Part shown: one piece after another, positions 948 to 64,000 of the stretch
Layout of the letters: each line of letters begins with the position of its first letter
Numbering within the stretch: position 1 is the first letter of the stretch
Virus genome (UHGV): UHGV-1579991
Length of the DNA stretch: 64,000 bases
Origin: a virus
Direction: 5' to 3' (one strand)
Program-made: the position numbers and the translations under genes
The notes under the pieces: generated by a model
The model's input: the letters and a program-made list of their open reading frames with translations, nothing else
Databases searched by the model: none
What the model was told of the DNA's origin: nothing

Positions 948-2222
948 TTATATATTTGACAGCTGTTTGCGTTGCAAAATTGCATGACCGCAGTCATATA
1001 CTGCAACATAACCTGCATCAATCATCTCTTGCTCATTTTGTCCGCAGTCTTCAATATGTTCTTTTGTCTTTAAATGACACCAGTGTTTGCGAATTGTTGA
1101 CTTGTCATCTGACAGTTGCGGATTAAGTGCGAAGTTAGTTGAGTCTACTGGTTCACCTGCAAGATGCTTTCGAATGACATCAATGACTTCATTGTCATCC
1201 ATCCATTCGAATATTGTAATGCAAGTGTAGCCAAGCTTAAGAGCAAGCTGAGTTTTGTCGAAGTGATAGAATTTGCTAACATGCTTATTGTGTGTAGTAC
1301 GGCCAATTAAATATGCAAAACCATATGTTGAATTGTGTGACCAAGTTGGATTGATTTCAATCAATAATTTGCAATGTTCATTACTGTAATTGAGGTCATA
1401 TGACCATCGCTCAAGATTGACATCATCAAGCCCACAATCAATCCCAAGTTCTTGCAGCAATTTGTCATGCCACCAATGGTTTGCTCGTGATTTTACATGA
1501 CCTTGAGCATCACGACATTTAGCAGTCATACAAAAATATGGGACACCATAGCGTTGCATGTTAGTTGACGCAATTTTTTGCAAATCGCCTGCAGCAGACC
1601 CATATTTTTGTCGTTTTGTTGCAACTGCTACTGCAATATTGCCAAATTTGTTGCCATATCGTTTCTGTTTAGTTTCAAGTGCTTTGTCAATATTTATGAT
1701 GCCTCTTGTACCATGTTCTTTTTCACGTTTAGCTAAAATTGTTTGCATGTCGCCAAGTTTGTTGCCATATCGTTGCAATTTAGTTTCATGCATTTTTGCA
1801 ATATTTGTCCAACTATCACCATAATGTTGTCTATGTGTTGCAGCGCAACGTGCTTTGTCACCAAACATGTGTCCAAACTTTGCTAAACGACGCTCAACAA
1901 ATTTTTGCATGTCACCCATGCCATTACCATATCGTTTCTGCTTAGTTGCAACAGCCTTTTGCATATTGACACCTCGATAGCCATAACGCATTTCTATTGT
2001 TGTAGTAATTTTATCACTGATGACTTTTGATTGCTGAGCATACTCAAAACCATATTTACGCAAGCAGCCAATTCGCTTATTATATTTCAAACGAATTTTA
2101 CCATGTGATGTCTTCTTTGGGCCATACCATTCATATGGCGTTTCTGCAATCAATTTATCACGTTCAGCTTCAAGTTCTTTTATTCGAGCTTCAAGAGCTT
2201 CACCTATTAATTGTGTTGCCAT
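948..2222 (-). CDS. putative homing-endonuclease-like protein (paralog family, intact archetype)
   Basis: 424 aa ORF. N-terminal coiled-coil (EALEARIKELEAERD), array of K/R-YG-N-x-x-G-D-x-Q repeats, C-terminal nuclease-like region (WWHD...LIEINPTWSHN...GYTCITIFEW) and terminal VYDCGH motif. Family assignment is by motif only. Confidence 0.55.
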   Translation of the reverse strand: MATQLIGEALEARIKELEAERDKLIAETPYEWYGPKKTSHGKIRLKYNKRIGCLRKYGFEYAQQSKVISDKITTTIEMRYGYRGVNMQKAVATKQKRYGNGMGDMQKFVERRLAKFGHMFGDKARCAATHRQHYGDSWTNIAKMHETKLQRYGNKLGDMQTILAKREKEHGTRGIINIDKALETKQKRYGNKFGNIAVAVATKRQKYGSAAGDLQKIASTNMQRYGVPYFCMTAKCRDAQGHVKSRANHWWHDKLLQELGIDCGLDDVNLERWSYDLNYSNEHCKLLIEINPTWSHNSTYGFAYLIGRTTHNKHVSKFYHFDKTQLALKLGYTCITIFEWMDDNEVIDVIRKHLAGEPVDSTNFALNPQLSDDKSTIRKHWCHLKTKEHIEDCGQNEQEMIDAGYVAVYDCGHAILQRKQLSNI

Positions 2223-13422: not shown

Positions 13423-14462
13423 GATTGCTGCACGAATTTTGAGAGCTCGAATGACAATGCGAGCATTGTTATGAATTGGTCAATTGACTGTTTAGACTCT
13501 ACACTGTATTTGTGAGCTGCAATGACAATGTCTCCAAGTCGTGCAACAAAACCAGGCGTATTCTTTGAGAGCTTTGCATAGCACCAATTTGCAAAGTCAG
13601 TTGAGAGAGCATTGATGACTTCAGTTTCACGACCTTTGTATTGTGACAATGTTTTGTAAAATTCACGCGGGTCTTTGCATGCGACAATGAAGTCATACAG
13701 TTCTTCAAACTTTGCTGACATGCCCTTTGTGACATGCTCAAGCGTTATATGACGCTCACCTTGATTGAAGACAAAGTAGCAAATGTTCAGAATTTTGCGG
13801 AAGTCTGGATAGTTATCTTGAATTAGCTTGATGAGCGCTTCTTTTTCAATGGTGCATTCATTTTCCTTCAAGATATTGTAGACGCGAACCATGCACTTCT
13901 TCATCAACTGTTCTGCAATATCATCAGAAAAGTCGAATGACAGCATTTTGAGACGAGATTGAGCAATTGATGCATCAATACGGTCTGGATAATTGCAAGT
14001 TGCAATGAAAAACGCAATGCCTGCAAACTCTTCAATGGTGCCTCGCAAAGCCATCTGGCTTTGTGTCGATAGATAATCCATTTCATCAAGCAGCACAACC
14101 TTTACGCCACTTGACGACAATGACATATGCTGACAGAATTCTGAAATTGTGTTGCGAACTGTGTCAATGCCAGAATTCTTTGAGCAGTTGATTTGCAGAA
14201 TTGAACGTCTATCAGTCCACTTCAATGCCAATGCTCTTGCTGCGGTTGTTTTTCCACTTCCTGGTGCTCCTGCGAACAAATAATTTTGCGGCTGACCATT
14301 AAATGCCGCAGCATAATCATCAGGCACAATTAACTCTTCGACTTTTGTTGGCCTGTAGCGTTCTAACCAAGTTCTATCTTTAAGGGATGCCATTTGTTGT
14401 TTGTTGATATATGTAAAAATATTGTACAACAATACTGTCATTTTTGCACAGCATGGCCGCAA
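13419..14462 (-). CDS. sliding-clamp loader subunit (AAA+ ATPase, RFC/gp44-like)
   Basis: 347 aa; Walker A (FAGAPGSGKTTAARALA), Walker B (VVLLDEMD), sensor-like SRL region. Confidence 0.7.
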   Translation of the reverse strand: MRPCCAKMTVLLYNIFTYINKQQMASLKDRTWLERYRPTKVEELIVPDDYAAAFNGQPQNYLFAGAPGSGKTTAARALALKWTDRRSILQINCSKNSGIDTVRNTISEFCQHMSLSSSGVKVVLLDEMDYLSTQSQMALRGTIEEFAGIAFFIATCNYPDRIDASIAQSRLKMLSFDFSDDIAEQLMKKCMVRVYNILKENECTIEKEALIKLIQDNYPDFRKILNICYFVFNQGERHITLEHVTKGMSAKFEELYDFIVACKDPREFYKTLSQYKGRETEVINALSTDFANWCYAKLSKNTPGFVARLGDIVIAAHKYSVESKQSIDQFITMLALSFELSKFVQQS

Positions 14463-15629
14463 TCGTACACAGGCACATAACCAGCGTCAAGCATTTGTTG
14501 TTCATCTACTTCTGCAGTATGCGCAGCATACAGTCGCTTCTTGTAATTCCACCAATGTTTTCTAATAGTCAATTTGTCATTGCATATGACAGGATTTTTT
14601 GACAAGTCTGTGCTATCTACACGTTCATTGCATAAATGCTGTCGTATGATTTCTACAACGTCATCAGGGTTATCCCAATCCCATATTGTAATGCATATGT
14701 AGCCTGCTGTAAGTGCTGCTTGAGTTTTTCTAAAATGTCTATCATTAGGAATTGGCAAATTGCGTTTAGATTTGCCAATTGCATATGCAAAGCCAAATGC
14801 AGCATTATGTGAAAACGATGGGTTGATTTCTATTAGTAGATGCTTATAATGCAAATCATAAGAAAATCTGCCAATATTGACATCATCAAATGTGCAATCA
14901 ATGTTAAGTCGTTGCAGCAAAAAATCATGCCACCAACGATTAACCGTTGTAATGGTGCGCCCATTAGCATGCCGACAACGCTCAGTCATAACAAACCAAG
15001 GTACACCATAGCGTTCAAGATTTGTTTGCATGCGTTTTGCAGTGCCACCATATTCATCACCGTATCGTAATCTGCGTGTATGAACTGCTTTTAATGGGTT
15101 GCCAGCAGAATTGCCATATCGTAGCATCTTTGTTTGCTGCGCTTTAGCAGTAATTACACCATGGTCAGGATAGTGTTCGCGTATTGTTTGCTGCACTTTA
15201 GTAGCATTCCATGTGCGATAGCCGTACTTGTGTAATTTTGTTTGCTGGGCTTTTTGCATGTTGTTATAATATGGGTCGCCATAGCGTTCTTCTTTAATTT
15301 TGCACATTAACTGTTGGTCGCCAAATGCATTGCCATATTTTGCAAGTTTTGTTGCCTTAAATTTAGTCATGTCGCCAAGCCCATTGCCATATCTTTCTCG
15401 TTTTGTTGCGACACCTTTGTTTGTAAATTCTTTTTAATTGCGCAGTGTTTTCAACACCATATTTACGCAAATTGCTTATACGACTGTTATATGTACGTTT
15501 GCAAATTGTGTATTGTGAGTAGCGTTTATGCTGAGGTCGTTCTTTAGACGCAGTTTGCAATATCACATCTCTTTCCTCTTCAAGTTCTTTTATGCGAGCT
15601 TCAAGAGCTTCTCCAGTTAATGGTTCCAT
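14438..15629 (-). pseudogene. frameshifted member of the homing-endonuclease-like paralog family
   Basis: Track ORFs 15363..15629 (coiled-coil N-terminus, LRKYGVENTAQLK) and 14438..15370 (YG repeats, nuclease-like domain, VYDCGH tail) are the two halves of one paralog in different frames. The second frame stays open upstream to 15433 (KEFTNKGVATKRERYGNGLGDM...), so the shift lies at the A5 run at plus 15429-15436. Confidence 0.6.
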
Positions 15630-26800: not shown

Positions 26801-26845
26801 CGCATCCTTGACTTGGTCCTGTAAACAGGGTTGTCAACATGCATT

Positions 26846-26916: not shown

Positions 26917-27009
26917 TTATCAATTGACTGCACTGCAATGCAATCAATCGTGCCAATGATATTTGACACGCATAATTGCAGTTATGCGTAACAATTCAAA
27001 TGTCATTTG

Positions 27010-27082
27010 AGCCAACTGCAGGAATCGAACCTGTAACCTGCTGAGTACAAATCAGCTGCTCTACCAATTGAGCTAAGTTGGC
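27010..27082 (-). tRNA. tRNA-Thr (anticodon UGU)
   Basis: Minus strand: acceptor GCCAACT/AGTTGGC, D-arm GCTC-AATTGGTA-GAGC, anticodon stem GCTGA/TCAGC with loop TTTGTAC, T-loop TTCGATT. Confidence 0.75.
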
Positions 27083-27164
27083 ATAAAGTCGTTGGGCCAT
27101 TGCAACCCAAACCTATCATCTTTGCCTAACCAAAGATGCAAGCGCTCTCTTACACCACGACTTG

Positions 27165-27235
27165 TAGCCGAACTTGGAGTCGAACCAAGCTTTCGAGAAT
27201 GAAAATCTCGCGTCCTAACCGATAGACGAAACGGC
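27165..27235 (-). tRNA. tRNA-Glu (anticodon UUC), non-canonical acceptor stem
   Basis: Minus strand: D-arm GTCT-ATCGGTTA-GGAC, anticodon stem CGAGA/TCTCG loop TTTTCAT, T-arm CTTGG-TTCGACT-CCAAG; acceptor GGCCGTT/TTCGGCT has two U-U mismatches at its base. Confidence 0.5.
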
Positions 27236-27419
27236 CAAGAGCAGTTCAAGTCTGCAGCATTGAACTGCGGAAACAATGCCTGTACGGGCAACCAATTGTG
27301 CAGATACAGCGACATTGCAAAATCACACCGAACCAAGTTTGTGGCTCTTCTGTCTCATAAAAACAAGTAATCATTACACTTGGCACCAATGATTTTGATG
27401 TAAAAATCGGTGTGTTACG

Positions 27420-27504
27420 CGGAGAGTAAGGGATTCGAACCCCTGGTACGTTGCCGTACAGTGGTTTTCAAGACCACCGCCATCGACCGCTCGGCCAACT
27501 CTCC
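27420..27504 (-). tRNA. tRNA-Ser (anticodon UGA), type II
   Basis: Minus strand: acceptor GGAGAGT/ACTCTCC, anticodon stem GTGGT/ACCAC loop CTTGAAA, 16-nt variable arm, T-arm AGGGG-TTCGAAT-CCCTT. Confidence 0.75.
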
Positions 27505-27697
27505 ATAAAACATTGCATAAGCATTCTTATCTCTTGATGAGGCCAAGTAGCTAATTTGGCAAGTTTGTTATATCTATCGTGACTGTTGCAGTTTGTTGTC
27601 ACTCAATACACAAAACTTTCGAACATTCATTGACAACACTGCAATATCGCTTTTTAAGCTCAGCCATCAATGTATTTATGCAATGTATAACAATTCG

Positions 27698-27779
27698 TAG
27701 CCAAACCGGGACTTGAACCCAGACTCCTAATGGAACAACATTTTGAGTGTTGCGTGTCTACCAATTCCACCATTTGGCC
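27698..27779 (-). tRNA. tRNA-Leu (anticodon CAA), type II
   Basis: Minus strand: acceptor GGCCAAA/TTTGGCT, anticodon stem CAACA/TGTTG loop CTCAAAA, 13-nt variable arm, T-arm CTGGG-TTCAAGT-CCCGG. Confidence 0.7.
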
Positions 27780-27876
27780 ATTTGCAAATGCAAGCTGTTT
27801 CACAACTGTTTGCATTTGCATTTGCATTGTTTAACACACTAAAATATGATTCATCTAATCAAAAACCAGAGAATTG

Positions 27877-27949
27877 TCGAGAATGTGCGATTTGAACGCC
27901 AATTATACGTCCCAAACGTATCGTGTTACCGGATTACACTACATTCTCG
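27877..27949 (-). tRNA. tRNA-Pro (anticodon UGG)
   Basis: Minus strand: acceptor CGAGAAT/ATTCTCG, anticodon stem ATACG/CGTAT loop TTTGGGA, T-loop TTCAAAT with a weak 3-bp T-stem. Confidence 0.6.
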
Positions 27950-27956
27950 TTAATTG

Positions 27957-28027
27957 TTGAACTGTCTGGACTCGAACCAGAAATATATCATCCAAAGTGA
28001 TATGTGTTACCATTACACCACAGCTCA
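27957..28027 (-). tRNA. tRNA-Gln (anticodon UUG)
   Basis: Minus strand: acceptor TGAGCTG/CAGTTCA (one G-U), D-arm GTG-TAATGGTAA-CAC, anticodon stem TATCA/TGATA loop CTTTGGA, T-arm TCTGG-TTCGAGT-CCAGA. Confidence 0.7.
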
Positions 28028-39452: not shown

Positions 39453-42400
39453 TCAATTACATGCTGAATGTCCGCAGTTGGTGCATCGAACACAGCCGTC
39501 AAACTTGACCATGTCACCACCGCATTCAGGACACTTTGCATACATCTTTGAGCCATCTTGAATGTGTAGTTTCAATGCGCGACCAATTGCTTTGCAGAAT
39601 GTGCCAACAGATGCAAAGCTTTTTGCAGTTTGGTCGACAATTTCACCAAGGTCGATGCCATTGCGAAGCATCGTTGAGTACAGTCGAGTAATTGTTTGCT
39701 GCTCATCTGAACCAAGACGTTCTGAGATATTGTCATAGTGTTGCAAGAATGACAAATTATCACCAAGCTTGTAGTGCTTCTTATCAGTCTTTGTGATTGT
39801 CGTTTGTTCAATGCCTTGCAACTTGTCAAATTCGTCTTTGTCAAGTTCAAATGCAAAGATTTCATAGGGTCGACCATCATCACAACCTACAAGAATACAC
39901 CACTTACGCTTATACACTGATACACAATACACTGCAGCAGGCAATACAGGTTTTCGTTTTGAGCGATGACCAGACTGCAAGACATGCGACTTATCCTTAG
40001 ACTGCTTATCATCTTTTACGAGAACACCTGCACGTGAGCCATCTCGATAAATTGTGCAACCCTTGCAGCCAGATTTCCATGCAGTCAGATAAATTTCACG
40101 AACAAGCTCTTTTGTTGCAGAGTTTGGAATATTGACTGTTACAGAAATTGATGAGTCAATGTACTTTTGCAACGCGCCTTGCAGTTTAACCTTGCCAATC
40201 CAGTCAACATCTTCAGTAGTTGCCTTATAGTATGGTGATTGAACAAGCAATTCATCAATGACTGCTTGCGAAGCATTTGACAACCAAGCTTTGATACGAG
40301 ACATTTCTGCTTCTGACCATTCAATGCCAGTATCTTTGACAAGGGTGAATTTGTCATCACCAAGCTGCACTCGTTTGCAAATCCACTGCATCAATGGGTA
40401 GTGAACTACAGCGTATTCAATGAACTTGTCACCAGTAGTCTCATCAATGAAGTTGATGTCTGCTTCATTATCAACTGCAGTAGGCTTTCGACGACGTTTG
40501 TGCAGTGGCATAAAAACAGGTTCAATGCCAGAAGTTGTCTGAGTCATCAAAGCTGTGGTGCCAGTTGGCGCAATTGTTGTTGTGTTGATGTTTCGACGAC
40601 CAAATTGTTGATAAGTTGTGATGTGCTCATCATCAATCAGTTCAGATAACATACGCTGAATGAACTTTGACTGCACATCTGTGTCATAGTCGAATATTGC
40701 AAATGAGCCACGAATCTCTGCCAAGTCAATTGACGCTTCATAAGTCGCCTTTACAAGCCATTGTTGCATAGTGACTGCGAAGTCAATTGACTCTTGTGAA
40801 CCATAGCGCAAGCCAAGCATTGCCATTGCATCGCCAAGTGCAAGAAAGCCCATGCCATATCGACGAGTATTTGTCAATTTGTCATAGACTTTATGCCACA
40901 AGTCAAGCTCAGTTTTCTTAATGTCAAATGATTCTTTGTCTGATTCAACCTTTGCAATGATTCGTTGAACTGCTTCAATTTCAAGCTGCACAAGGTCATC
41001 CATGATGACTGCACAGTCATATGTATCTTTGTAGAATGCTTCAAAGTCAAATGATGCATCAGCAGTCCAAGGATTAAGCACATATGCAGTCAAATTGCGA
41101 TGTGATAAAATGCAGCTTGCATATGCTGCAAGAGGCTGTTCACCGCACTGCCTGTTGTTTACAAATACTTGCATATGTCTGTCATTTGTATCATTGACAG
41201 CGTCAAATGACCCTACAAAAAAGTTGTGATAATCATCTACAGTGCCATTATACACATCTTCTACACCATCAAGTTCAACAGTGTGTACCCTATGATTGTA
41301 GTAATCTGCAAACTGCTTAAACTTTCTGTATGACGCATGAATAGCAGCGTCAACATTGTTAGATTTGCATTCATTTGCAAATTCTTCATAATTTGGTCGT
41401 TTGCCAAGTTTTTGCTTTGCTGCAGTATATACAAGCACTTGTTCTTTAGACCATTTTGCTTGCTGAGCTGCGTGGCCGCATTCGGCAGAACAATATGCAA
41501 CTTCTCTATAAAACCAGTGCGCCCAAAATTCAGAGCCGCAATGTTCGCAAATACGTTTAACATACACTTGTTTGTCAACAAATTTAGTGTCATAGCCCAT
41601 ATTGCGAACTTTAATTGCTGTTGCTATGCATCTGCTATCAATGCCAACTAAATCAGGATATTTAACATTAGCGCGCGTTGCACAATGACTTAAAAATGCA
41701 TCAATAGAGCCAAATGTTTCTACTAATTTATTGTACCTGTAGCCAGACCATGCAACAGTATTATTGCCTGGCGCATAGCGCATATAGTATTCTAATTCTT
41801 TGCGACTAAGGCCTCTTCCAACTTTTGCAGTGCATTGCGTAACATAGTCTACAATTGATTGCACAGTTGTATCAATATCATATCTGCCATTACGTTCACC
41901 AGAAGTAGATGCACTCATTTTAGCAGAATACTGTGCAAAACGTTCTGCATTTGCTTTAATTTTGTATATTGGATTGTTAGTGCCTCTACGTTCAAGTGCA
42001 TGTAATGCATCATGCTCTTTTTTGCTTAGTACTTGTAAGTTATTTGGGTCATTGTTTAATGAATTGCCATCGATATGATGCACTACTGTGTGTGTAGCAT
42101 CAAACTGTTCAGCATGACAGTATTCTGCTATTAAACGATGCTCAAACTTATATACACCATTATTCAACACTGCATAATATGGTGCAGATTTGCTATTTGT
42201 TTGATAGCTAAGCACTTCATCAAATGAACATTGTTGTCTTGCAATAATTGCTAAGCTATCACCATGCTGTAATTGTCGTGCTTCTTTGTATGTGCCATCT
42301 GTTAACTTAAACTTGTGATTACCTGTGCAACGAATAACATCACCAGAATCAAGTGTAACTTTGTATATTTGCACATTTGAGCCTGTTTTGCGTGGATGCC

Positions 42401-43439
42401 GCATTTTGCGTACAACTACATTATTGTTGTCATCATAGCAATACACATTAACATCATCGCCAATATCTGCAAGTTCACGTATTGTCATTGTTTGTCTGCC
42501 ATCAGCAAGCATAACTTTAGTGCTGCCAACAATGCATGGATTTGTTGAGCGCTCTTCATACATTTTACCGTATGCTTTCGAGTTCGACTCTTCCATAATG
42601 CGGTCCCAAAAGAACACGCCGGGTTCTGCAGATGCCCATACATTGTCAACAATTTTGTCAAATAATGCTTTTGCATCTGATGTCTTATGCAGCTCTTGGC
42701 CATCAGAGCCACGCCAAATATGTTCAAACTGCTGTTCTGCAAGCACTGCACGCATAAATGCATCAGTAAGCTTGATGGAAATGTTTGCACCTGTGATTTT
42801 TGTCAAGTCTTTTTTTGCGTCAATGAACTTATCTGCATCAGGATGCTCAATTGACAATGACAACATCAATGCGCCACGCCTGCCATTTTGTGCAACTTCT
42901 TTTGTCGATGTTGAAAAGCGTTCCATAAATGACACGACACCAGACGTCGTAATAGCACTGTTATGTACTTCTACGCCTTCTGGGCGAATATGCGACAAAT
43001 CATGGCCAACACCACCACGACGTTTCATCAACTGAACTTGCTCTTCATCTGTTTTGAAGATGCCGCCATATGAATCTGCATCATTGCCTATTACATAGCA
43101 ATTTGACATTGATGTGTAACCGCCAAGACCGATACCAGCCATTGGAGAACCACCAAGTACAAATCGCTTAAATGGCTCAAGCAAATATGCAAGTCGCTCT
43201 TTTGACAATACACGTTTGCCTGTCTGTTCTTCAAATTGTGATTCTATACGGTCAAATTCATTGACCCAGCGCTCATGCATATCAGACAATGAGTGTTCAT
43301 ACAAATTGTCTTTGTCATGATGCAAGTATTTTGACATGCATATGTCAGCAGCCATTGAGTCGCCCGTAAATTCATGCGTCAGTGTAGTGTGCACTTCAGC
43401 ATATTCAGGCGACCCAATTTGAATGGGACGTTTTGTCAT
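39453..43439 (-). CDS. nrdJ: ribonucleotide reductase, class II (NrdJ)-like, intein-containing precursor
   Basis: Track ORF 39453..43499; likely start at ATG 43439 (MTKRPIQIG). Exteins reconstitute the RNR active-site motif NP-CGEQPL...AYASC; C-terminal Cys-rich zinc-ribbon-like tail. Class assignment is tentative. Confidence 0.7.
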   Translation of the reverse strand: MTKRPIQIGSPEYAEVHTTLTHEFTGDSMAADICMSKYLHHDKDNLYEHSLSDMHERWVNEFDRIESQFEEQTGKRVLSKERLAYLLEPFKRFVLGGSPMAGIGLGGYTSMSNCYVIGNDADSYGGIFKTDEEQVQLMKRRGGVGHDLSHIRPEGVEVHNSAITTSGVVSFMERFSTSTKEVAQNGRRGALMLSLSIEHPDADKFIDAKKDLTKITGANISIKLTDAFMRAVLAEQQFEHIWRGSDGQELHKTSDAKALFDKIVDNVWASAEPGVFFWDRIMEESNSKAYGKMYEERSTNPCIVGSTKVMLADGRQTMTIRELADIGDDVNVYCYDDNNNVVVRKMRHPRKTGSNVQIYKVTLDSGDVIRCTGNHKFKLTDGTYKEARQLQHGDSLAIIARQQCSFDEVLSYQTNSKSAPYYAVLNNGVYKFEHRLIAEYCHAEQFDATHTVVHHIDGNSLNNDPNNLQVLSKKEHDALHALERRGTNNPIYKIKANAERFAQYSAKMSASTSGERNGRYDIDTTVQSIVDYVTQCTAKVGRGLSRKELEYYMRYAPGNNTVAWSGYRYNKLVETFGSIDAFLSHCATRANVKYPDLVGIDSRCIATAIKVRNMGYDTKFVDKQVYVKRICEHCGSEFWAHWFYREVAYCSAECGHAAQQAKWSKEQVLVYTAAKQKLGKRPNYEEFANECKSNNVDAAIHASYRKFKQFADYYNHRVHTVELDGVEDVYNGTVDDYHNFFVGSFDAVNDTNDRHMQVFVNNRQCGEQPLAAYASCILSHRNLTAYVLNPWTADASFDFEAFYKDTYDCAVIMDDLVQLEIEAVQRIIAKVESDKESFDIKKTELDLWHKVYDKLTNTRRYGMGFLALGDAMAMLGLRYGSQESIDFAVTMQQWLVKATYEASIDLAEIRGSFAIFDYDTDVQSKFIQRMLSELIDDEHITTYQQFGRRNINTTTIAPTGTTALMTQTTSGIEPVFMPLHKRRRKPTAVDNEADINFIDETTGDKFIEYAVVHYPLMQWICKRVQLGDDKFTLVKDTGIEWSEAEMSRIKAWLSNASQAVIDELLVQSPYYKATTEDVDWIGKVKLQGALQKYIDSSISVTVNIPNSATKELVREIYLTAWKSGCKGCTIYRDGSRAGVLVKDDKQSKDKSHVLQSGHRSKRKPVLPAAVYCVSVYKRKWCILVGCDDGRPYEIFAFELDKDEFDKLQGIEQTTITKTDKKHYKLGDNLSFLQHYDNISERLGSDEQQTITRLYSTMLRNGIDLGEIVDQTAKSFASVGTFCKAIGRALKLHIQDGSKMYAKCPECGGDMVKFDGCVRCTNCGHSACN
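41148..42536 (-). mobile_element. intein (Hint domain plus HNH homing-endonuclease domain) inside the RNR gene
   Basis: In-frame 463-aa insertion from Cys at 42536 (CIVGSTKVMLADG) to ...VFVNNRQ at 41148, followed by the +1 Cys of CGEQPL. Contains HNH motif HHIDGNSLNNDPNNLQVLSKKEHDALH and intein block-F-like VYNGTVDDYHNFFVG. Confidence 0.75.
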
Positions 43440-55154: not shown

Positions 55155-57104
55155 TTAGTCATTTGCTTTAGTTGCTTGCATCAGTTCAGCAAAGCTTACA
55201 GTGTAAGCGTCTTCGCCAACGGTCACGTATGCAGCATTGACATTTGAGTCATTGCCTGTGTATGTAACCAAGGTGCCTGCAGGAATTTCCACACCGTCAA
55301 TGGTTCGCATCGAATTGACAAGCTTGTATGTCTTGTTATCTTCGAAGTTCTCATTGACATATGCAGCAGCAATCATTGTTGAACGCTTACGAGATTCATT
55401 GATGAAACTTGCGCCAACAAGTTCTGACAACTTCTTCTTTGTTACAGCAGAGCATTTGTCATATGCAATGTCAATTGCGAGGTCTACATCACCAAGTTCC
55501 TTTGCAATGAGTTCATCAATCTGAGACAGCTTCTTGTCATCTTTGACAGCGACAAAATTCATTGCAAACTTGCGAGCGTTGTCTGACAATGATTCATCAA
55601 TGTTCCACTGTTTCATCAATGTCTGCTTCAGTACCTTGTCAAGTTCCGACCAGTCCTTATCTGCAAGAGTAGTTGCATCAAAGTCTTCATTGCTGAACTG
55701 CTTCAGCACTTTGACTTTGTCATCATGTGACAATGCAGCCCACTTGTTTGCAGCCTCTTCAGCAGATTCAAGCAAAGGCTTGATTGCATCTTTGAGTTCT
55801 TGCGGCCAAGTTTCAGGCGCTTTGAGCAGCATCTCAGATGAGTTGTACTCAAGCATGTCAGTCATGATTGCAAGCTTAACATTGTTAGCTTTCTCCTCGG
55901 GTGACAGAGCTTTGAACTTTTCAGCCCAGTCTTCAGATTCAGTTACAATTGACACTGGTTTTGCAAAACCAGCAACAAAGACAAGCTTATACATGATATT
56001 CGTCATGAATGAGCAAACTGCATCAATGTCTGACTGTGTTGCTGCAGATTGAGCATCACGAATGTTGAGCAATGCCTGACGAAGAGACATAATGCCTACA
56101 ACAGGGTCAGACCATGTCAACACAACAGAGCTGTCAATTGTGATACCCTTGTCGAATCGCATATTTTCTGCAATACGGTCAGCAAGTTCAGGCAGTTCAG
56201 TGTAGTACTGCTCAAGTGCTGCATGTGTAGCAGGAATCGAAACTTTTGCAGCATCAAATGGGTTGTTGATGTGCATAACATGTGCAGTTTGAATTGACTG
56301 CATCAGCATCGACACTACTGCAGATTCTATTGCAACATCATCTGCAGCAGCTTCATCAAGATTTGCAAGTTTTAGCAATGTCTTTTTGTCTGCATCTGAC
56401 AATCGCAGCCAAATGTATTCCCATTGACTGTTTGCATCATAGCCACGGTCAGTAGCAAACTTGGTGAGTTCTGCAGATTTCTTTGCTGCGTCATCGTCAT
56501 CAAGCCAATCCAAGAATGCTTTCAGTTTGTCGTCAAATGCTTCATTAACAAATGACGCCATTGCATTTTGCAGCAAATATTGATGGTCTCGTACTGGCGA
56601 CTCAACAATTTCAAAGCCTTCAAGAGACTTTGGCGAGTCAGTTGCTGAACCAGCTTCAAGACACTTCTTTGATGCATTGTCAATGACAAACCACATCTTT
56701 TGTGCTTTGAGTGCAATGTAAGTCTTGTCTTTTGATTGCTGAACAGTCATGTTGTCAAGAGCCAATGCACTGATTGGCAAATTCTTGACTGCTGACTTGT
56801 CAAGTGCTTCATTGACTGCTACATTGTCATCACTCATTAACTGAGTATTTGCAGCAAATGTTGCAGAATCAATGTTAAGCTCTTTGCCATCAGGCATAGA
56901 GAACTTAACTGCATCTGCAACATCAAGCACTTGTACCATGGTACCTGCTTCGACTTTGTCATCACCAACAGCGAACTCAGTTACAACCTGATATGCCTTG
57001 TTAGCTTCAACAGTTTCAACAGACTCCATAATGAACTTTGCTGTACTGCAAGAGATTTTGTGCTTTTTCATGTTCATGTATGAATTTGAGTGTTTGTTGT
57101 TCAT
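55155..57104 (-). CDS. hypothetical acidic protein (649 aa)
   Basis: Long minus-strand ORF rich in Asp/Glu/Ala; no catalytic motif recognised; possibly structural or scaffold. Confidence 0.5.
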   Translation of the reverse strand: MNNKHSNSYMNMKKHKISCSTAKFIMESVETVEANKAYQVVTEFAVGDDKVEAGTMVQVLDVADAVKFSMPDGKELNIDSATFAANTQLMSDDNVAVNEALDKSAVKNLPISALALDNMTVQQSKDKTYIALKAQKMWFVIDNASKKCLEAGSATDSPKSLEGFEIVESPVRDHQYLLQNAMASFVNEAFDDKLKAFLDWLDDDDAAKKSAELTKFATDRGYDANSQWEYIWLRLSDADKKTLLKLANLDEAAADDVAIESAVVSMLMQSIQTAHVMHINNPFDAAKVSIPATHAALEQYYTELPELADRIAENMRFDKGITIDSSVVLTWSDPVVGIMSLRQALLNIRDAQSAATQSDIDAVCSFMTNIMYKLVFVAGFAKPVSIVTESEDWAEKFKALSPEEKANNVKLAIMTDMLEYNSSEMLLKAPETWPQELKDAIKPLLESAEEAANKWAALSHDDKVKVLKQFSNEDFDATTLADKDWSELDKVLKQTLMKQWNIDESLSDNARKFAMNFVAVKDDKKLSQIDELIAKELGDVDLAIDIAYDKCSAVTKKKLSELVGASFINESRKRSTMIAAAYVNENFEDNKTYKLVNSMRTIDGVEIPAGTLVTYTGNDSNVNAAYVTVGEDAYTVSFAELMQATKAND

Positions 57105-57354
57105 ATGATATGATATATATCAAGTGCAGCAATTGAACAGATTGCAAAAACAATGCTCAGACTTTACAGTCTGAGCATTGAACGACTAAATTGTACATCT
57201 TCCACAATGATATAGAATCATTGTTAATATTGTATTGATATTGTACAACATGCATTGCATATTTGCAATGATACAACATGCAAAATGCACTTGCACTTTG
57301 ATGCAAAGTACTGCGTACACAACATGCATTGCATATTTGCATTTTGACGCAATG

Positions 57355-58425
57355 TCATTGTTGTTTATGCCAGCCATATGATGCCTGACCAGCATCATAC
57401 ACTTCTACAAAACCATGGTCGTACATAAAATCTTCATTACGAGTGCCCTTGCCACCATTAGTGCCAAGAATACGGTCTGCACCATGCATAAGTAGCATGT
57501 TATTTGTGACATGTTGCTTTGTCAGCATATTGAACCAGTGTTTGCTATATGACAAACCAAGACCATCAAAGCCCAGCTTTGTGTACACACCACCGTCAAA
57601 CTTGCTTAAATCACAATATGATAACACAGATTCAGGGTCATATGTCTTGATAAAGTGCTTAAAGATTCGTTCAGCACCACCAACAACTTTGGTTGCTGCA
57701 CAAAGACGTAGCAATTCATATTGATAGCGCTTATTGTATCGTGGACGACCAAATGTCATAAGTTGATGAATGACATAACCACCAAGCAACTCAAGTGGAT
57801 GACCTTCAATCAACGCAAGATTGATAAAATTGCCTGAGCACTTGCCTTGCAAATGATGTTCAATCAAAAATTGATTTGCAGTATACTTGTCAATTTCAAC
57901 AACTTTAAGCTTGCGAGCATATACAATCTTTGATTTGTCTACGATTTGATGCTTGATGTGATTGATAACTTTCTTGGCGTCATCCCAATCCCACACATGA
58001 ATACAATGAAAGCCTGCAGCTTTTGCAATGTCTGTTTTCTTTGCATGAACATCACAAGGCAAATGTGCATCTTTTGCATCATGCATAAACAAGTGCTCAA
58101 ATGAATGCGTACTGTTATGCGAAAATGCAGGATTGATGTTAATGACAATATTGTCATGTCGAAAATCGAAGACTTCATCACCAATGACAAAGTTGCGCTC
58201 AAAATCTATACCGACATGTTTGAGCAACACTTGATGCCACACGTCTTTATAGGCTGATTCAAGCTTGCTTAGCTCATCACAGTTTGCAATGTTTTTGTAA
58301 CGTTGAATAGCAGCATCAAAGTCAAGATTGACTTCAGCGTAGTCTGCATTTTTATCATAGTGAAATTTTGAGCTCATGCGTATAATTTTGTGTATATAAT
58401 TATTGTACAACATGCAAATGCACAT
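57355..58425 (-). CDS. homing-endonuclease-like paralog (nuclease-like domain N-terminal)
   Basis: 356 aa; N-terminal IVININPAFSHN...GFHCIHVWDWDD nuclease-like domain and C-terminal FVEVYDAGQ tail homologous to the family VYDCGH motif. Confidence 0.5.
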   Translation of the reverse strand: MCICMLYNNYIHKIIRMSSKFHYDKNADYAEVNLDFDAAIQRYKNIANCDELSKLESAYKDVWHQVLLKHVGIDFERNFVIGDEVFDFRHDNIVININPAFSHNSTHSFEHLFMHDAKDAHLPCDVHAKKTDIAKAAGFHCIHVWDWDDAKKVINHIKHQIVDKSKIVYARKLKVVEIDKYTANQFLIEHHLQGKCSGNFINLALIEGHPLELLGGYVIHQLMTFGRPRYNKRYQYELLRLCAATKVVGGAERIFKHFIKTYDPESVLSYCDLSKFDGGVYTKLGFDGLGLSYSKHWFNMLTKQHVTNNMLLMHGADRILGTNGGKGTRNEDFMYDHGFVEVYDAGQASYGWHKQQ

Positions 58426-58468
58426 TGCATTTGATACAACATACAGTATAAGTTTGCTTTTGACAGAC

Positions 58469-59530
58469 TTATTTTGTATTGCTACGCGTCATTGTTAAAT
58501 GACCGCAATCATACACATCAACTTCTGTTTTGCCAAGCATACATGTATGACAATTTATTTTGAAATCTGCTGCAGTGTAATCAGGATAGTTTAGCGGAGA
58601 TTCTTTTGACAAATCAATTTCAATTGTGTCAGTAGTTTTAAGTTGTTCAGTGCCTGCAATGATATCTGCAATAAGATTGATAACTTCTTCTTGTGAATCC
58701 CAATCAAACACAGTTATGCAACGATAGCCTGCATCAAGTGCAAGTTTTGTTTTGTTGTAATGGTATTGAGCACCAATAACATTGTTGTCTTTTGCTCGAC
58801 CAGTTAAATATGCAAAACTAACAGTGCAGTTGTGCGTAACTGTTGGACAAATTTCTATAAGTAACTTTGCAGGCTCATACTGCAAATCATATGTTTGATT
58901 ATTGATGTTAAACTCGTACTGTGTATCAATTGCCAACTGTCGTAATAACGCATCATGCCACATCATATTACATTTAGAAATTGTTTTGGATGACAATCTG
59001 CATTGCGGCAATTGACATGGCCAATCTACGCCGTACATTTGTTGTGTTGTTTGACGCATTTTGTTAACATCACCAAAATGATTGCCATATCGATGCTCTT
59101 TGGTTTTAAGCGACTGCTCAATATTGACATTGCCTACACAACCATAACGTTCAAGTTTTGTTGCAGCAGTTTTGCTAACATCACCATGCCCATTGCCAAA
59201 TTTGGCGACTTTAGTTGCAAGTATTTTATGACTTGGGCCAAATGCATTGCCATACAATTCTTGTTTAGTCGCAAGCATTTTGTCGATATTACAACCAGCG
59301 CCATAAGTGTTATGCATAGTTTGCATACGTTGTCGAATAAATTTTGGCACAGATAAAGGACTTTCTACACCATATTTGCGTAAGCAACTGATTTTGCATG
59401 CGTACTTTTGCTTGATGACAGAATGTGCATTTCGACGTCCTATGTAAGTGTTTTCTGATGTAGCAGCAAGCTCTGCATCTCTAAGAACTTCAAGTGCAGC
59501 AATTCGTGCTTCAATTTCTTCAGATGTCAT
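58469..59530 (-). CDS. homing-endonuclease-like paralog
   Basis: 353 aa; coiled-coil N-terminus (EIEARIAALEVLRD), YG-x-x-x-G-D repeats, LIEICPTVTHN...GYRCITVFDWD nuclease-like domain, VYDCGH tail. Confidence 0.55.
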   Translation of the reverse strand: MTSEEIEARIAALEVLRDAELAATSENTYIGRRNAHSVIKQKYACKISCLRKYGVESPLSVPKFIRQRMQTMHNTYGAGCNIDKMLATKQELYGNAFGPSHKILATKVAKFGNGHGDVSKTAATKLERYGCVGNVNIEQSLKTKEHRYGNHFGDVNKMRQTTQQMYGVDWPCQLPQCRLSSKTISKCNMMWHDALLRQLAIDTQYEFNINNQTYDLQYEPAKLLIEICPTVTHNCTVSFAYLTGRAKDNNVIGAQYHYNKTKLALDAGYRCITVFDWDSQEEVINLIADIIAGTEQLKTTDTIEIDLSKESPLNYPDYTAADFKINCHTCMLGKTEVDVYDCGHLTMTRSNTK

Positions 59531-59610
59531 TTTTTATCATATTGATAATTGTACAACATGCAAATGGCGTTTGCATTTGATGCAACAATGACTTAGCTTG
59601 TACAGTTTGC

Positions 59611-59647
59611 AAAAAAGAACCGCTTGCAATCTAATTGCAAGCGGTTC
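59611..59647 (-). terminator. intrinsic terminator downstream of the putative capsid gene
   Basis: aaaaaa-gaaccgcttgcaat-cta-attgcaagcggttc: 14-bp perfect stem, 3-nt loop, followed on the minus strand by a T6 run. Confidence 0.65.
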
Positions 59648-59876
59648 AATGAATACGTTTGTCAGAAACTGTCAATGGTGCAATCGCTTGAAGAGTTAGC
59701 TGAACAACTTGTTGATGCGATTGCTGCATTGGTGACTACCAAGCAGCCCATTGAACATTGGATTCGACATCAACGTCTTTGTGGTTGTTGTTAAACTCCC
59801 CAAGCCAGCAAGTATCATTTAGCAAGTTTCCAAACTTAACGTACTTGTCGTTCCCCGGCTTGGGTGGCGCAGGTTG

Positions 59877-61592
59877 TCAAATCCAGCCGTAGTCGCTGTG
59901 GATAGCGAAGGTGAGGTAAGCCAACTCGGGATACATACCCGTCTCCGCGAGAGCGTAATCCGACTCAATCAGCAACTTAGGCGCTGCTGTACCTTCGGCT
60001 GTTAATTCCACACTTGATGCAAGGTCATATGGCATGAATACGCATCCCTGGTTGACATTCTCTACGTCAACGCCGTCAGCAGTTTTGTTCGTACGAAGAA
60101 CGAGAACAGTGTTATCGTTCAGCGGCTGCTTAGGATTGCAATAGATTTTAATGCCAGCAAGGTCACCTGCATAATACAGGTTCTTGTTGTCCTGTACCAG
60201 CGTATTGTCAAGAGCTGCAACAAAGTTCTTCTGAGCCTTAATTGCAACCAAGGCAATCGTATTGACCACGGCAGCATCACCGGCACCGAAACGCGACAGG
60301 TTGCCAATGATTGCCGAAGCAGCCAGGATACGAGTTGCGATACGAGCCTGACGGGTAATCTGGTTCTCAGCCGAGCTGTTCGATTCAGCGTTCGGAACCA
60401 TACCGAATTCAGCCGTACGGTCTACACCCATCTTGTCGACAAATGCAGGAGCCTGGAATTCTGAGAATGCCTTGGCGGTTGAACCAGCGTAGCCAATGTA
60501 CAAGTTCAGGTTGTAGCCCTGAGCAGCCAACAGCTGAGCATGTGTCGTAACACCAAGTGCACGCATGCGCTTCAGACCATTGTCGTTAATTGACTGCGTG
60601 ATTTCATTCTGCATTGCATTCTTGATGATTGCAACTGCATCCAAACCGCGAGCACGGAGGTCCTTAACCTGTCGACGAGTCAGAGCACCCCAAGTCTGGT
60701 ACGTCTTAACTTCGATAGCCTTTGAGAAGGTGCGGAGCTCCAGCATGTTCGGGTTGCCAGCCTCAGCCTCAGAACGAGACATTGGGTTGCCGTCAATGTC
60801 ATCCATTGCAGCGAAGCCGTGGATGTGTTCGTCACCAGCCGAAACCAGGTCGAACATAACCTCAGTCATGCCAGTCAGCATGTCAGTTACAGCACCTGCA
60901 GCGTCAACCGAGTAGATTTTCGATGCAGCCATTGCAACATCAGCCAACGACTTGTCAGGAGCAACTGTCATTGCGCCACCTGCGCCTACAGTGTACACGC
61001 CCTCATTGCGAACTACGAGGTAGCCTGCAACACGCGATACCTGTACAAACGTTACCTTGGCAGCAAGCTCACCGGCAGCTGAACCGCCGATGTACAGAAC
61101 TTGACCCTTCTTGAGGCCATGAACCATTGTCTGCGAAGCAACATTGTACAACTCCTTCCACTTGATGAGGAAGTAACGAGGACCCTTGGCTGCATTCAAC
61201 TTGCCACCGCCATATACGTAGTCTACATAGTCCAGCTGAACCAGCGGGCTGTAAACAGGAATGGTCGGGAGCAGGTCGAACAGAATCGTGTTGGCTGCGA
61301 TGTTCATGTTCAGAGCCAGAACATTGGCAGCTACATCTATTGAACCACGCTTACGCGACGGGTCATGGAACTGTGCTTGCGTACCTGGGTCAGCAGGGAA
61401 AGCGACCGGACCTACGCCATTGAGATTCTGCGAATACGTCGACTCAAACGACTCGTTCATATACTGAACGTTCTGAGCGATTGATGCGAGCAGATACTTC
61501 TTAGCGGGCGAGAGCTTGGAGTCAAACGACTCATCAAGAACAGGACCCCACTTTTTCAGCAATGCATCAATCTGTGTACGTTTTGCGTTCAT
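59877..61592 (-). CDS. putative major capsid protein
   Basis: 571 aa ORF in a locally GC-richer stretch with distinct codon usage (highly expressed gene signature, judged by eye), followed by a strong intrinsic terminator; no catalytic motifs. Functional call is inference, not a recognised motif. Confidence 0.4.
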   Translation of the reverse strand: MNAKRTQIDALLKKWGPVLDESFDSKLSPAKKYLLASIAQNVQYMNESFESTYSQNLNGVGPVAFPADPGTQAQFHDPSRKRGSIDVAANVLALNMNIAANTILFDLLPTIPVYSPLVQLDYVDYVYGGGKLNAAKGPRYFLIKWKELYNVASQTMVHGLKKGQVLYIGGSAAGELAAKVTFVQVSRVAGYLVVRNEGVYTVGAGGAMTVAPDKSLADVAMAASKIYSVDAAGAVTDMLTGMTEVMFDLVSAGDEHIHGFAAMDDIDGNPMSRSEAEAGNPNMLELRTFSKAIEVKTYQTWGALTRRQVKDLRARGLDAVAIIKNAMQNEITQSINDNGLKRMRALGVTTHAQLLAAQGYNLNLYIGYAGSTAKAFSEFQAPAFVDKMGVDRTAEFGMVPNAESNSSAENQITRQARIATRILAASAIIGNLSRFGAGDAAVVNTIALVAIKAQKNFVAALDNTLVQDNKNLYYAGDLAGIKIYCNPKQPLNDNTVLVLRTNKTADGVDVENVNQGCVFMPYDLASSVELTAEGTAAPKLLIESDYALAETGMYPELAYLTFAIHSDYGWI

Positions 61593-61680
61593 GATTGAAT
61601 TTGTTTGTTATTGAAAGTGAAACATATATTTCTGTATAATATGTATAGAACTACTGACATTGATTGAATTGTGAAAATGG

Positions 61681-62970
61681 TCATTTTTCAATCTTTTTGA
61701 GCAATGCATGACCGCAATCATAGACTTCGACGAAGCCTGAAGCAATCAATGAGTCAACATCTATAGAAGACGTTCGTATAATATGTTCGTGTGTCTTGAT
61801 ATTGTATAGATGACACTGAACCCATGTTTTGACGACTTCATAATTTGGATACAATCGAGGGTCTTCTTTTGACAAATCAAGTTCTATGACATCATCAGTT
61901 TTGAGCTGCTCAGTTTTGTTTATGACATCTCTAATGTGCAGCAACATATCATATCTACAATCCCAGTCAAATATTGTTATACATCGATAGCCATTGCGTG
62001 CTGCAACATCTGTTTTGAATTTGTGAGCATACGCAGGTTTGGCGTCATTATCAACAGAATGCCCAGTTATGTAACCAAAGCCCTTTGTTGCATTGTGTGT
62101 AACAGTTGGATTGATTTCAATTACAACAGCATCTTTTCGCAAATCATATAACAAGTTCTCAATAGGATGCTCAGTAACAAAATCAAGATTGCAAGAATGT
62201 TTCAAATCCCATTGCCACGACATATTGATGTTTGATGTCAACCTTGCAGATGCTTGCGGCAATTGCAATGCATGTTCTACACCATAGCGTTCACGTAATG
62301 TTGCATGAGCCTTTTGCATATTTTGCATTGCTGGACCCCAATGCTTAAATTTTGTTGCATTTATCTTCGCAATTTTGTCTGGCAGCTTATTTGTACTATC
62401 TACACCATATTTAATAAGACAGCTGATGCGAATATTGTATTGTCGTTTTATTCGAGAATGTGATGTAGCACATCTACTAAATCGTTCAAATGGTGTTGAT
62501 GCAATCAATGCATCTCGTTCTGACTCAAGAGCTTTGACATGTTCAAGCACTTCTGCTGGCACATTATCATAGTCAATCACATATTGCTGACGTGGTTGCG
62601 TTACATGAGTTTTGCCATATGTCTTAAGCTTATTGATTTGCATGCTATACTTTCTGCGTATATGTGGATGTCTTGATGCATCAGATTGCGCAATTTCATG
62701 CTCTCGTTGCTCTTCAAGTTTAGCTATTTGCTCAACAATAGCTGGTTCAATGTCTGGTTTGTCTGATATGACTATACTTTTAAGCTCATCAAGACGTTTG
62801 TTTAGATATTTGACACGTCTTGTGTATGTTATCTTTGCAACTTGATGGTTTGTATGATGCTTACCTACTTGCTGTTCTGGTTGATTCAGCGTGTCATCAA
62901 GGCGTTGCTTAGCGAGCTCAAATTCATTATCAAGCCATGCTTTGTGTGTGTCAAATTCGTCTTGTGTCAT
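61681..62970 (-). CDS. homing-endonuclease-like paralog
   Basis: 429 aa; coiled-coil region, YG repeats, VVIEINPTVTHN...GYRCITIFDWD nuclease-like domain, FVEVYDCGHA tail. Confidence 0.55.
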   Translation of the reverse strand: MTQDEFDTHKAWLDNEFELAKQRLDDTLNQPEQQVGKHHTNHQVAKITYTRRVKYLNKRLDELKSIVISDKPDIEPAIVEQIAKLEEQREHEIAQSDASRHPHIRRKYSMQINKLKTYGKTHVTQPRQQYVIDYDNVPAEVLEHVKALESERDALIASTPFERFSRCATSHSRIKRQYNIRISCLIKYGVDSTNKLPDKIAKINATKFKHWGPAMQNMQKAHATLRERYGVEHALQLPQASARLTSNINMSWQWDLKHSCNLDFVTEHPIENLLYDLRKDAVVIEINPTVTHNATKGFGYITGHSVDNDAKPAYAHKFKTDVAARNGYRCITIFDWDCRYDMLLHIRDVINKTEQLKTDDVIELDLSKEDPRLYPNYEVVKTWVQCHLYNIKTHEHIIRTSSIDVDSLIASGFVEVYDCGHALLKKIEK

Positions 62971-63095
62971 ATGTGTAGTACCTGATTAATCATGTTATAT
63001 ATCATATGACTGCTAACTACTTTGCACACAACAAAAAGAAGCCAAGTCATTTTGACTTGGCTTCAAATTATTCTAACTTATTGATAGTTAATAAG

Positions 63096-63671
63096 TTAAA
63101 ATTGAGAACCTACAACGCGTGGCACTGCAAGTTCGCTGGTAAGAACGACTTGACAAGTGTAAATGTCGTCACTATTCTTGTCATGTGAATCAACTGCGCT
63201 GATAGGACCCTTAGGAAATCCATTCTTGTACGACGTTACTCTCCAGGCTGTTCCAACCTGATTATTTTCAACGAGAATCCAAGAACCCACATAGCCCTTC
63301 TTGAGACCCATGGCTCCCGTGAGAGGATTCCTGCGTTTCGCATTCCAACTTTGGAAAGCATTGTAAATCACAGGGTCATTGGTGTCTGGTCCATGCAAGT
63401 TCAGATTCATTGTGATAGTCAGGTTGTGAATGTTGCTGACTGTCAATGCTGAGAACTGACGAGACTGATTTTGCGCAACTTTTTGTGAAACCACATCAGG
63501 TGCATTGTCAAGTGTGCCCAAACCTGAAATTGACTGAATTTGCTCATCAATTGTATCTGGAATCACAACGCCTGCAGGTGGCATAAGTGTGAGCTCGAAC
63601 AATGAACTGAACACGGGTTCAGCATATTCGGCAGTCACTTCGCTGTTTTTGATATGCGGTAACTTCGGCAT
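63096..63671 (-). CDS. hypothetical protein (possibly structural)
   Basis: 191 aa ORF adjacent to the putative capsid region. Confidence 0.45.
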   Translation of the reverse strand: MPKLPHIKNSEVTAEYAEPVFSSLFELTLMPPAGVVIPDTIDEQIQSISGLGTLDNAPDVVSQKVAQNQSRQFSALTVSNIHNLTITMNLNLHGPDTNDPVIYNAFQSWNAKRRNPLTGAMGLKKGYVGSWILVENNQVGTAWRVTSYKNGFPKGPISAVDSHDKNSDDIYTCQVVLTSELAVPRVVGSQF

Positions 63672-63704
63672 GATTGTAATGTTTGTTAAATTGTTCTTGT
63701 TTTG

Positions 63705-64000
63705 TTATGCGTCATCGTACAGTGAATGACTTATCGTCATCTTCTGTAGTAGTTGGGTCATCAATTACATCGTGGCCAATACCTGACATGGGCTCTGGCT
63801 CAGGTTCCGGTTCTGGTTCCGGTTCTGGTTCCGGTTCTGGTTCCGGTTCTGGTTCCGGTTCTGGTTCCGGTTCTGGCTTTGGCTCCGGCTTAGGCTCTGG
63901 CTTAGGCTCTGGCTCAGGTTCCGGCTCAGGTTCCGGTTCTGGTTCCGGTTCTGGTTCCGGTTCTGGTTCCGGTTCTGGTTCCGGTTCTGGTTCCGGTTCT
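63705..64000 (-). CDS. hypothetical protein with (Glu-Pro)n / (Lys-Pro)n dipeptide-repeat region, partial (N-terminus beyond window)
   Basis: Minus-strand frame is open from the window edge to stop TGA at 63707..63705; ggttccggttct repeats translate as EPEPEP...EPKPEPKP, ending ...[29 protein letters not shown]. Confidence 0.5.

Follow-up and report, generated by a model that had tools for sequence, protein, structure and literature searches.

Putative Hef-type homing endonuclease cassettes flank the predicted major capsid gene of an uncultured human-gut phage

The description of Hef, an enzyme of the T4-related phage U5, by Sandegren et al. in 2005 is said to report as its title finding that one endonuclease gene had taken the place of another at its site. 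Enzymes of the Hef type have since been placed in a Vsr-like endonuclease family named 'EDxHD' (PMC3239194), the prototype of which is I-Bth0305I (PDB 3r3p). Homing endonuclease genes (HEGs) of several kinds lie close to conserved phage genes: the Hef-like genes of LIMEstone1 adjoin structural genes (PMC3296691), T4 has segD between its genes 23 and 24, nrdB is the target of both hef and mobE (PMC2988022), and 'HEG islands' bracket capsid and terminase genes (Barth et al. 2023, PMC10448857). In jumbo phages, fusions of Mom-like domains with restriction endonuclease (REase) domains have been read as restriction-plus-protection modules (Iyer et al. 2021, PMC7824862). Here we describe a locus related to all of these in virus genome UHGV-1579991, of which a stretch of 64,000 nucleotides (the window) was analysed; it is part of a 108-kb scaffold of the ENA metagenome assembly ERZ28658723. 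Between positions 57355 and 62970, a predicted major capsid gene is flanked by three nuclease genes, HEG-C upstream and HEG-B and HEG-A downstream. The phage is about 175 kb in size, comes from human-gut metagenomes and is uncultured; its sister contigs (IMG/VR) are 175 kb, and more distant relatives were taken from human-gut assemblies. We consider it probable that the capsid gene is bracketed by free-standing Hef-type homing endonuclease cassettes that have been repeatedly inserted and replaced.

The gene at the centre of the locus (59877..61592, minus strand) encodes a 571-aa gp23-like protein and is, by sequence homology, the gene for a major capsid protein of the gp23 type, bearing out the putative assignment made in a first-pass annotation. 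The protein matches Pfam Gp23 (PF07068) at 43.2 bits against a cut-off of 24.4 and PHROG 138 (major head protein) at 1.3e-15. Alignments that cover 93-100% of the protein show 34-37% identity to the annotated major capsid proteins of Chryseobacterium phage MA9V-2, Sphingomonas phage PAU and Tenacibaculum phage PTm1; identity to the capsid proteins of Lak phages is about 28%. A prohead-protease-like gene is located upstream of it on the source scaffold.

HEG-C (61681..62970, 429 aa) lies directly upstream of the capsid gene, and HEG-B (58469..59530, 353 aa) and HEG-A (57355..58377, 340 aa) follow downstream, all on the minus strand, which carries nearly all genes of the region. The capsid gene and the three flanking open reading frames (ORFs) are present on this strand where the first-pass annotation had placed them; the ORF 57355-58425 is real, but a start at 58377 is likelier for HEG-A because the metagenome gene call uses it and a promoter-like element overlaps 58399-58441. 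The proposed relationship of the three flanking genes also holds. HEG-B and HEG-C are 31% identical over 372 aa, almost their whole length (E = 4e-47), and the match of HEG-A to each of them is confined to a core of about 130-158 aa (30%, E = 1e-19 and 6e-16). A tblastn search of the window with the three proteins revealed two more paralogues, bringing the total to five rather than three: HEG-D (948..2222, minus strand, 424 aa), head-to-head with the large terminase gene (2282-4273), and HEG-E (14438..15629, minus strand), directly upstream of the clamp-loader gene (13419-14441). The nuclease genes are thus free-standing, with three copies by the capsid gene, one by the large terminase gene and one by the clamp-loader gene. 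HEG-E is split into two overlapping ORFs of 88 and 310 aa where the reading frame shifts within the repeats, near 15414-15421, which could represent a pseudogene or frameshift, or an assembly error.

Most copies of the family consist of DUF7487 helical repeats and a Vsr-fold nuclease. HEG-B has this architecture with a short beta C-terminus, and HEG-C has a coiled-coil N-terminus ahead of the repeats, the nuclease core and a short beta C-terminus. At the sequence level, no meaningful PDB match emerged for the capsid protein, HEG-A, HEG-C or a family profile, and fold comparison was therefore used, which gives the catalytic domain as the Vsr/I-Bth0305I type. Every family-conserved core residue is present in HEG-C, and HEG-B, HEG-C and HEG-D keep all family-invariant residues (D215, E226, H233, H257, K260 and W277 in HEG-B numbering); judged by these residues, HEG-B and HEG-C look catalytically intact. 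A tblastn search with HEG-A matched 341 phage records, and most of the best 40 of these 341 are annotated as Hef-like or putative homing endonucleases. Matches include Hef34 of Campylobacter phage NCTC12673 and Vibrio and Campylobacter genes annotated 'Hef-like homing endonuclease' (E = 1e-19 to 3e-25), and Campylobacter phage records hold 9-11 places matching HEG-A per record among the matches listed. HEG-A also matches PHROG 3339 'homing endonuclease' (1.3e-41) and has at least 718 metagenomic homologues; among the 120 listed, most are about 500 aa long and begin with DUF7487 repeats, NUMOD3 or HTH modules being present in a few. Searches with PADLOC and NCBIfam yielded nothing informative on the nuclease genes, and a megablast search for near-identity with 57000-63700 against 50,697 phage records gave no match. 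The three flanking proteins share a Vsr-fold core and are, on the strength of these homologies, Hef-type homing endonuclease homologues of the EDxHD lineage.

Like Hef of U5 and the Hef-like enzymes of Campylobacter, Vibrio, Klebsiella and Dickeya phages, these genes are free-standing beside conserved genes and occur in many copies per genome, with 27-30% identity to the matched phage genes (E down to 3e-25), a comparison from which the U5 Hef sequence itself was left out. They differ in being only distant relatives with no close match in any phage isolate; in addition, HEG-B, HEG-C, HEG-D and HEG-E are without the Mom-like C-terminal domain, and HEG-A is without the repeats and two conserved acidic residues. 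I-Bth0305I is intron-encoded, whereas the window genes stand alone, and their DNA-binding modules are DUF7487 repeats and not NUMOD2/HTH. With the HEG islands and T4 segD the locus shares endonuclease genes on both sides of a capsid gene and domain shuffling between paralogues, in the form of a 612-aa chimera described below, but the nucleases here are of the Vsr-fold Hef type and not T5orf172, IPA-HNH or GIY-YIG enzymes. In contrast to the HEG islands, the bracketed capsid gene shows no sign of recent exchange, its synonymous sites being near saturation. The likeness to Mom-REase fusions and phage Mu Mom (PDB 8bv8) lies in HEG-A and most of its at least 718 homologues, which join a REase-superfamily nuclease to a Mom-like GNAT domain. 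The differences are that the HEG-A nuclease site is altered, that its Mom-like activity is only predicted, and that the published interpretation of the fusions is restriction with self-protection, whereas ours is homing.

Comparison with relatives reveals extensive turnover of the genes flanking the capsid gene. In the closest contigs compared, the capsid protein is 99% identical (a cluster of 35 member sequences) and the flanks are 95-99% identical at the DNA level. Within this group, the upstream slot is occupied by HEG-C in the window and in contigs L003 and L010, by a 463-aa paralogue 29% identical to HEG-C in L002, and in L012 and L013 by the 612-aa chimera, in which residues 1-230 of HEG-C are matched at 92% and the C-terminal half of HEG-C at 54%. 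HEG-B fills the first downstream slot in the window and in L002; L003 has there an allele whose 5' two-thirds have been replaced (57% identity overall), and L012 and L013 have a 447-aa paralogue (38% identical). The breaks in homology coincide with the ORFs, the alleles of the upstream slot sharing their first 5 and last 22 codons and differing between.

More distant relatives add further states. A relative with an 86% identical capsid protein carries a single 605-aa Hef protein with repeats, nuclease and Mom-like domain. Among relatives at 74-76% capsid identity, L007 and L008 have a 427-aa version downstream of the capsid gene only; L004 has the gene of L007 and L008 with its 5' 140 codons deleted and the nuclease motifs gone; and in L015 and L016 an upstream copy on the opposite strand is accompanied by a second copy downstream. 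L014, a 179-kb contig of the same group, lacks nuclease genes of this kind both before and after the capsid gene and shows no detectable remnant. The order of capsid gene, terminator and endonuclease slot recurs in L004, L007 and L009, and L014 keeps the terminator with the slot empty. In the distant phage MA9V-2, a nuclease gene directly follows the capsid gene, its C-terminal region weakly resembling that of HEG-A (E = 2e-5). This pattern supports the interpretation that HEG cassettes have undergone repeated independent insertion, replacement, recombination and decay, which would produce it. The earlier proposal that selfish nuclease genes repeatedly invaded the intergenic space is accordingly supported by synteny, through the polymorphism of the slots, their three occupants each, and the chimeric, truncated and empty states.

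The mechanism we envisage is modelled on known free-standing phage homing endonucleases. During mixed infection, the enzyme would cut a site in or near the conserved neighbour gene of a genome without that cassette, and recombinational repair would copy the cassette, together with some flanking DNA, into the broken genome. The edges of the capsid gene would be safe, recurring landing sites because the gene is essential and conserved, and different family members may have arrived there, replaced one another, formed chimeras and decayed.

Several observations weigh against this interpretation. HEG-A has no N-terminal DUF7487 repeats, and its Vsr-like core carries the substitutions E62N and E80N at positions that are glutamate in 36 of 39 sampled relatives; both are also found in the HEG-A copies of L002 and L003. 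Since near-invariant glutamates are replaced and the repeats are missing, the nuclease activity of HEG-A has probably been lost. For the differences that separate the window from its sister contigs, the ratio of non-synonymous to synonymous change (pN/pS) comes to 0.04 in the capsid gene, 0.03-0.04 in HEG-A, 0.04 in HEG-B and 0.09 in HEG-C, with HEG-A differing from its L003 copy by 50 synonymous and 6 non-synonymous changes. Purifying selection on the three HEGs is as strong as on neighbouring phage genes and stronger than expected of a purely parasitic, decaying element; the low ratios indicate that these genes are maintained by selection acting on either the element or the phage. Nor is there a clear co-conversion tract in the capsid gene beside the swapped cassettes: differences per 100 nt among the window, L002 and L003 are scattered single-nucleotide polymorphisms that show no trend with distance from the junctions (the terminal bins of one profile are alignment-edge artefacts). 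Equivalence of the catalytic residues with those of EDxHD enzymes is deduced only from spacing, with no sequence-level PDB match; the D-to-H spacing is 18 in HEG-B numbering, close to the 17 of I-Bth0305I (D196-H213). Lastly, the cleavage site, target sequence and homing events of this locus are hypothetical.

The C-terminal part of HEG-A raises the question of a different function. In HEG-A and most homologues, the nuclease is followed by a domain of GNAT fold whose closest sequence similarity is to Mom (in the HEG-A structure model, helices span 292-304 and 314-320), and 17 of 39 family members match PHROG 1384 'Mom-like DNA modification protein'. Mom function requires R111, D149, R151 and S124 (PMC13219725) as well as Y149 (PMC7261163), which corresponds to Y159 in the numbering of the 241-aa Mu record; momylation also depends on an HTH-like insertion. 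An hhalign alignment places R111, D149 and Y159 of that record opposite the family-invariant R224, D256 and Y265 of HEG-A, although the alignment is statistically weak (E = 0.037, probability 1.4%) and offers no clear HEG-A equivalent of S124 and R151. The GNAT domain holds many more invariant polar residues than the nuclease domain. These features, the fixation of HEG-A under strong purifying selection, and the proposal already made for jumbo-phage Mom-REase fusions (PMC7824862) all favour a reading of the genes as phage weapons of the restriction-modification type, in which the Mom-like GNAT domain would modify the phage's own adenines and the REase-fold nuclease would attack unmodified host or competitor DNA, HEG-B (nuclease only) and HEG-A (modification only) forming a split pair. 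We regard this reading as unlikely, given that four of the five window paralogues have no Mom-like domain at all, that none has a PADLOC match, and that rapid exchange of alleles in fixed intergenic positions next to core genes is a signature of homing and not of housekeeping modification; the weakness of the Mom alignment also counts against it. The two functions are nevertheless compatible and not mutually exclusive. A more speculative synthesis, to which we give only a slim chance, holds that Hef-type elements are self-protecting homing endonucleases: the Mom-like GNAT domain would modify one or more adenines of the element's own recognition site, rendering the carrier immune while unmodified competitors are cut, and the system would here be split between HEG-B, with repeats and intact nuclease, and HEG-A as a nuclease-dead, protective or domesticated DNA-modifying partner.

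The low pN/pS of all copies, the fixation of HEG-A and the resemblance of the promoter-like elements of HEG-A and HEG-B to motifs upstream of DNA-metabolism genes could also be expected if the paralogues simply formed an expanded family of ordinary phage genes that benefit the host, for instance as regulators or recombination and repair nucleases, varying through diversifying selection or recombination. This is very improbable, because slot occupants only 29-57% identical between flanks 95-99% identical cannot result from divergence in place; moreover, one relative has none of these genes and another a 5'-deleted copy, and the homologues are annotated as homing endonucleases, U5 Hef being reported as one in the literature. 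Repeated cassette insertion and replacement therefore remains our preferred explanation, with a qualification as to its participants. Of the three copies proposed as invaders, HEG-B and HEG-C can stand as such. HEG-A is 98% identical in all four contigs covering the second downstream slot, L002, L003 and L012 among them, and its altered nuclease site, intact Mom-like domain and fixation in the lineage make it, on the most economical reading, probably a fixed, stable resident that no longer homes and not an active invader. Its GNAT domain may account for its retention, or the gene may be mobilised in trans; for T4 mobE and I-TevIII, a defunct endonuclease gene is reported to undergo trans-homing (PMC2790892).

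The capsid gene had been singled out for its visibly different composition and codon usage, and quantification over the window ORFs confirms that the region is not uniform. With a GC content of 0.512 and a third-position GC content (GC3) of 0.544, against a GC3 of 0.353±0.047 (range 0.249-0.457) in 44 other ORFs (z = 4.1), it has the highest GC3 of the 45 ORFs analysed and is the strongest composition outlier. It favours NNC over NNT codons (0.67 vs 0.39), and also CGT, CTG, CAG and AAG; codon shares in the capsid gene and in the other genes are 91% and 32% for CAG, 83% and 41% for AAG, 75% and 29% for CGT, and 53% and 8% for TCG. The step is sharpened by the nuclease genes, four of the five falling in the lowest fifth of ORFs by GC3 (0.26-0.31), with HEG-A mid-range at 0.34. 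A sharp GC step at both borders of the gene, and a capsid protein 74% identical to that of L004 where the flanking proteins are only 30-35% identical, might suggest recent horizontal acquisition, possibly as the 'HEG island' cargo of the flanking nucleases. We find this scarcely credible and rejected it: the L004 capsid gene is likewise elevated in GC3 (0.48, neighbours 0.31-0.40), and the two clades are close to saturation at synonymous sites (49% of codons identical, 42% expected), so that the high protein identity reflects constraint. The bias is also patterned as translational selection, in its preference for NNC over NNT, CGT and CTG and its avoidance of rare codons. As the diverged L004 gene is GC3-enriched despite near-saturated synonymous sites, the anomaly is best described, from these comparisons, as a conserved codon bias that is old, kept by selection and not due to recent transfer. 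Translational selection would be expected to produce such a bias in the most highly expressed gene, and its extreme degree is consistent with very high capsid expression; it says nothing about the nuclease genes.

A separate feature of capsid codon usage concerns the seven tRNAs that the phage itself encodes in a cluster at 26846-28027 (Gly-UCC, Thr-UGU, Glu-UUC, Ser-UGA, Leu-CAA, Pro-UGG and Gln-UUG): it is exactly their cognate codons that the gene avoids. The fraction of codons cognate to these tRNAs is 0.168 in the capsid gene; across 44 other ORFs it is 0.451±0.056. This is the reverse of the widespread view that late structural genes are the ones served by phage tRNAs. Beside the seven tRNA genes, ARAGORN calls a tmRNA-like gene with an asterisk flag (26412-26854, minus strand), for which there was no Rfam match at the gathering threshold.

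Downstream of the capsid gene, the stem-loop with T-run noted earlier (59611..59647, minus strand; stem-loop and T6 at 59647..59617) has the sequence features of an intrinsic, factor-independent terminator and is predicted to be one. Its 14-bp stem (7 G-C pairs), 3-nt loop and T6 lie 229 nt past the capsid stop codon. Among the 18 terminator-like sites in 10 kb of scanned sequence (shuffles, 8.8±2.2), it ranks first. It is identical base for base in sister contigs L002 and L003, with equivalents after the capsid gene in L004, L007, L009 and L014; the capsid gene is, by this prediction, its own transcription unit with a strong terminator at its end. The terminator of the 74-76% relatives examined instead sits near the capsid stop (32 nt past it in L004). 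The intervening 229 nt (59648..59876, minus strand) form a structured, GC-rich (about 48%) untranslated stretch with a long hairpin just past the stop codon (59799..59864, minus strand), and the 3' region as a whole (59600-59880) has an RNA-fold z of -5.55. On the opposite strand of this region, a 56-codon ORF with a TTG start occupies 59624-59794. An Rfam search of the whole window at the gathering threshold found only tRNAs, and one of 57000-63200 at a permissive threshold gave a single chance-level miRNA match and none for the capsid 3' region.

Beyond the terminator, a 43-nt TGCA-rich promoter-like element ending in TTTGCATGTTGTACAAT precedes HEG-B (59545..59587, minus strand). A second copy, 86% identical, precedes HEG-A (58399..58441, minus strand), and three degenerate copies with no ORF behind them follow HEG-A (57240..57355, minus strand). 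Related TTGTACAAT motifs are found just upstream of the start codons of three genes, those of the two topoisomerase II subunits and ORF 24918-25637. The 43-nt element is present only in the clade with the 99% identical capsid protein, and may, as its sequence and placement suggest, serve both as an early or middle promoter and as a recombination site for cassette gain and loss. Comparison across clades of promoters upstream of the capsid gene was uninformative. Upstream of the capsid gene in L004 (7790-7960), two copies of a motif of about 45 nt containing GTCAAATTTTGTGTCATTCTGCCGACTGCCACAAAATA lie about 80 nt apart; this motif is absent from the window.

The locus is bounded on both sides by further hairpins. 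First in transcription order is a gene of unknown function (63671..63096, minus strand, 191 aa), ended by a terminator-like hairpin with a 12-bp stem and T-run (63038..63064, minus strand) that marks the upstream edge of the HEG-C slot; the hairpin is kept in L002 and L003, the L002 sequence diverging about 20 nt beyond it. Upstream of this gene, where no gene is called, the hexamer GGTTCC is repeated about 33 times in tandem (12-nt unit GGTTCCGGTTCT); the array, which has strong AT skew, extends from 63803 to 64000 and runs off the end of the window. At the other end, a terminator-like hairpin with a 13-bp stem and T-run (57151..57180, minus strand) closes the HEG-B/HEG-A block before a gene for a 649-aa DUF5856 protein (57104..55155, minus strand). 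The L002 counterpart of this protein (12506-14257) is shorter and only 77% identical, and DNA homology to L002 is broken between window positions 56539 and 56359 while neighbouring genes are 95-99% identical, which points to a variable internal segment. Elsewhere in the window, the 1328-aa ORF of the ribonucleotide reductase large subunit (39453-43439, minus strand) matches HNH-endonuclease PHROGs at residues of about 418-510, between two reductase segments, which suggests an intein carrying an HNH homing endonuclease.

Endonuclease genes beside capsid, terminase and replication genes are already well documented, and current understanding is unchanged by this locus, which is a clear but ordinary example of HEG turnover in an uncultured human-gut phage, with two slots and three paralogues in each. 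Its most useful features are the multi-allelic slots and HEG-A. The chimeric, truncated and empty variants of the slots could serve as a population-genetic data set on competition for landing sites. One protein family has received two interpretations in the literature, as 'Hef-like homing endonuclease' and as 'Mom-REase fusion', and HEG-A, with its nuclease altered and its Mom-like domain intact, could help to separate the two activities.

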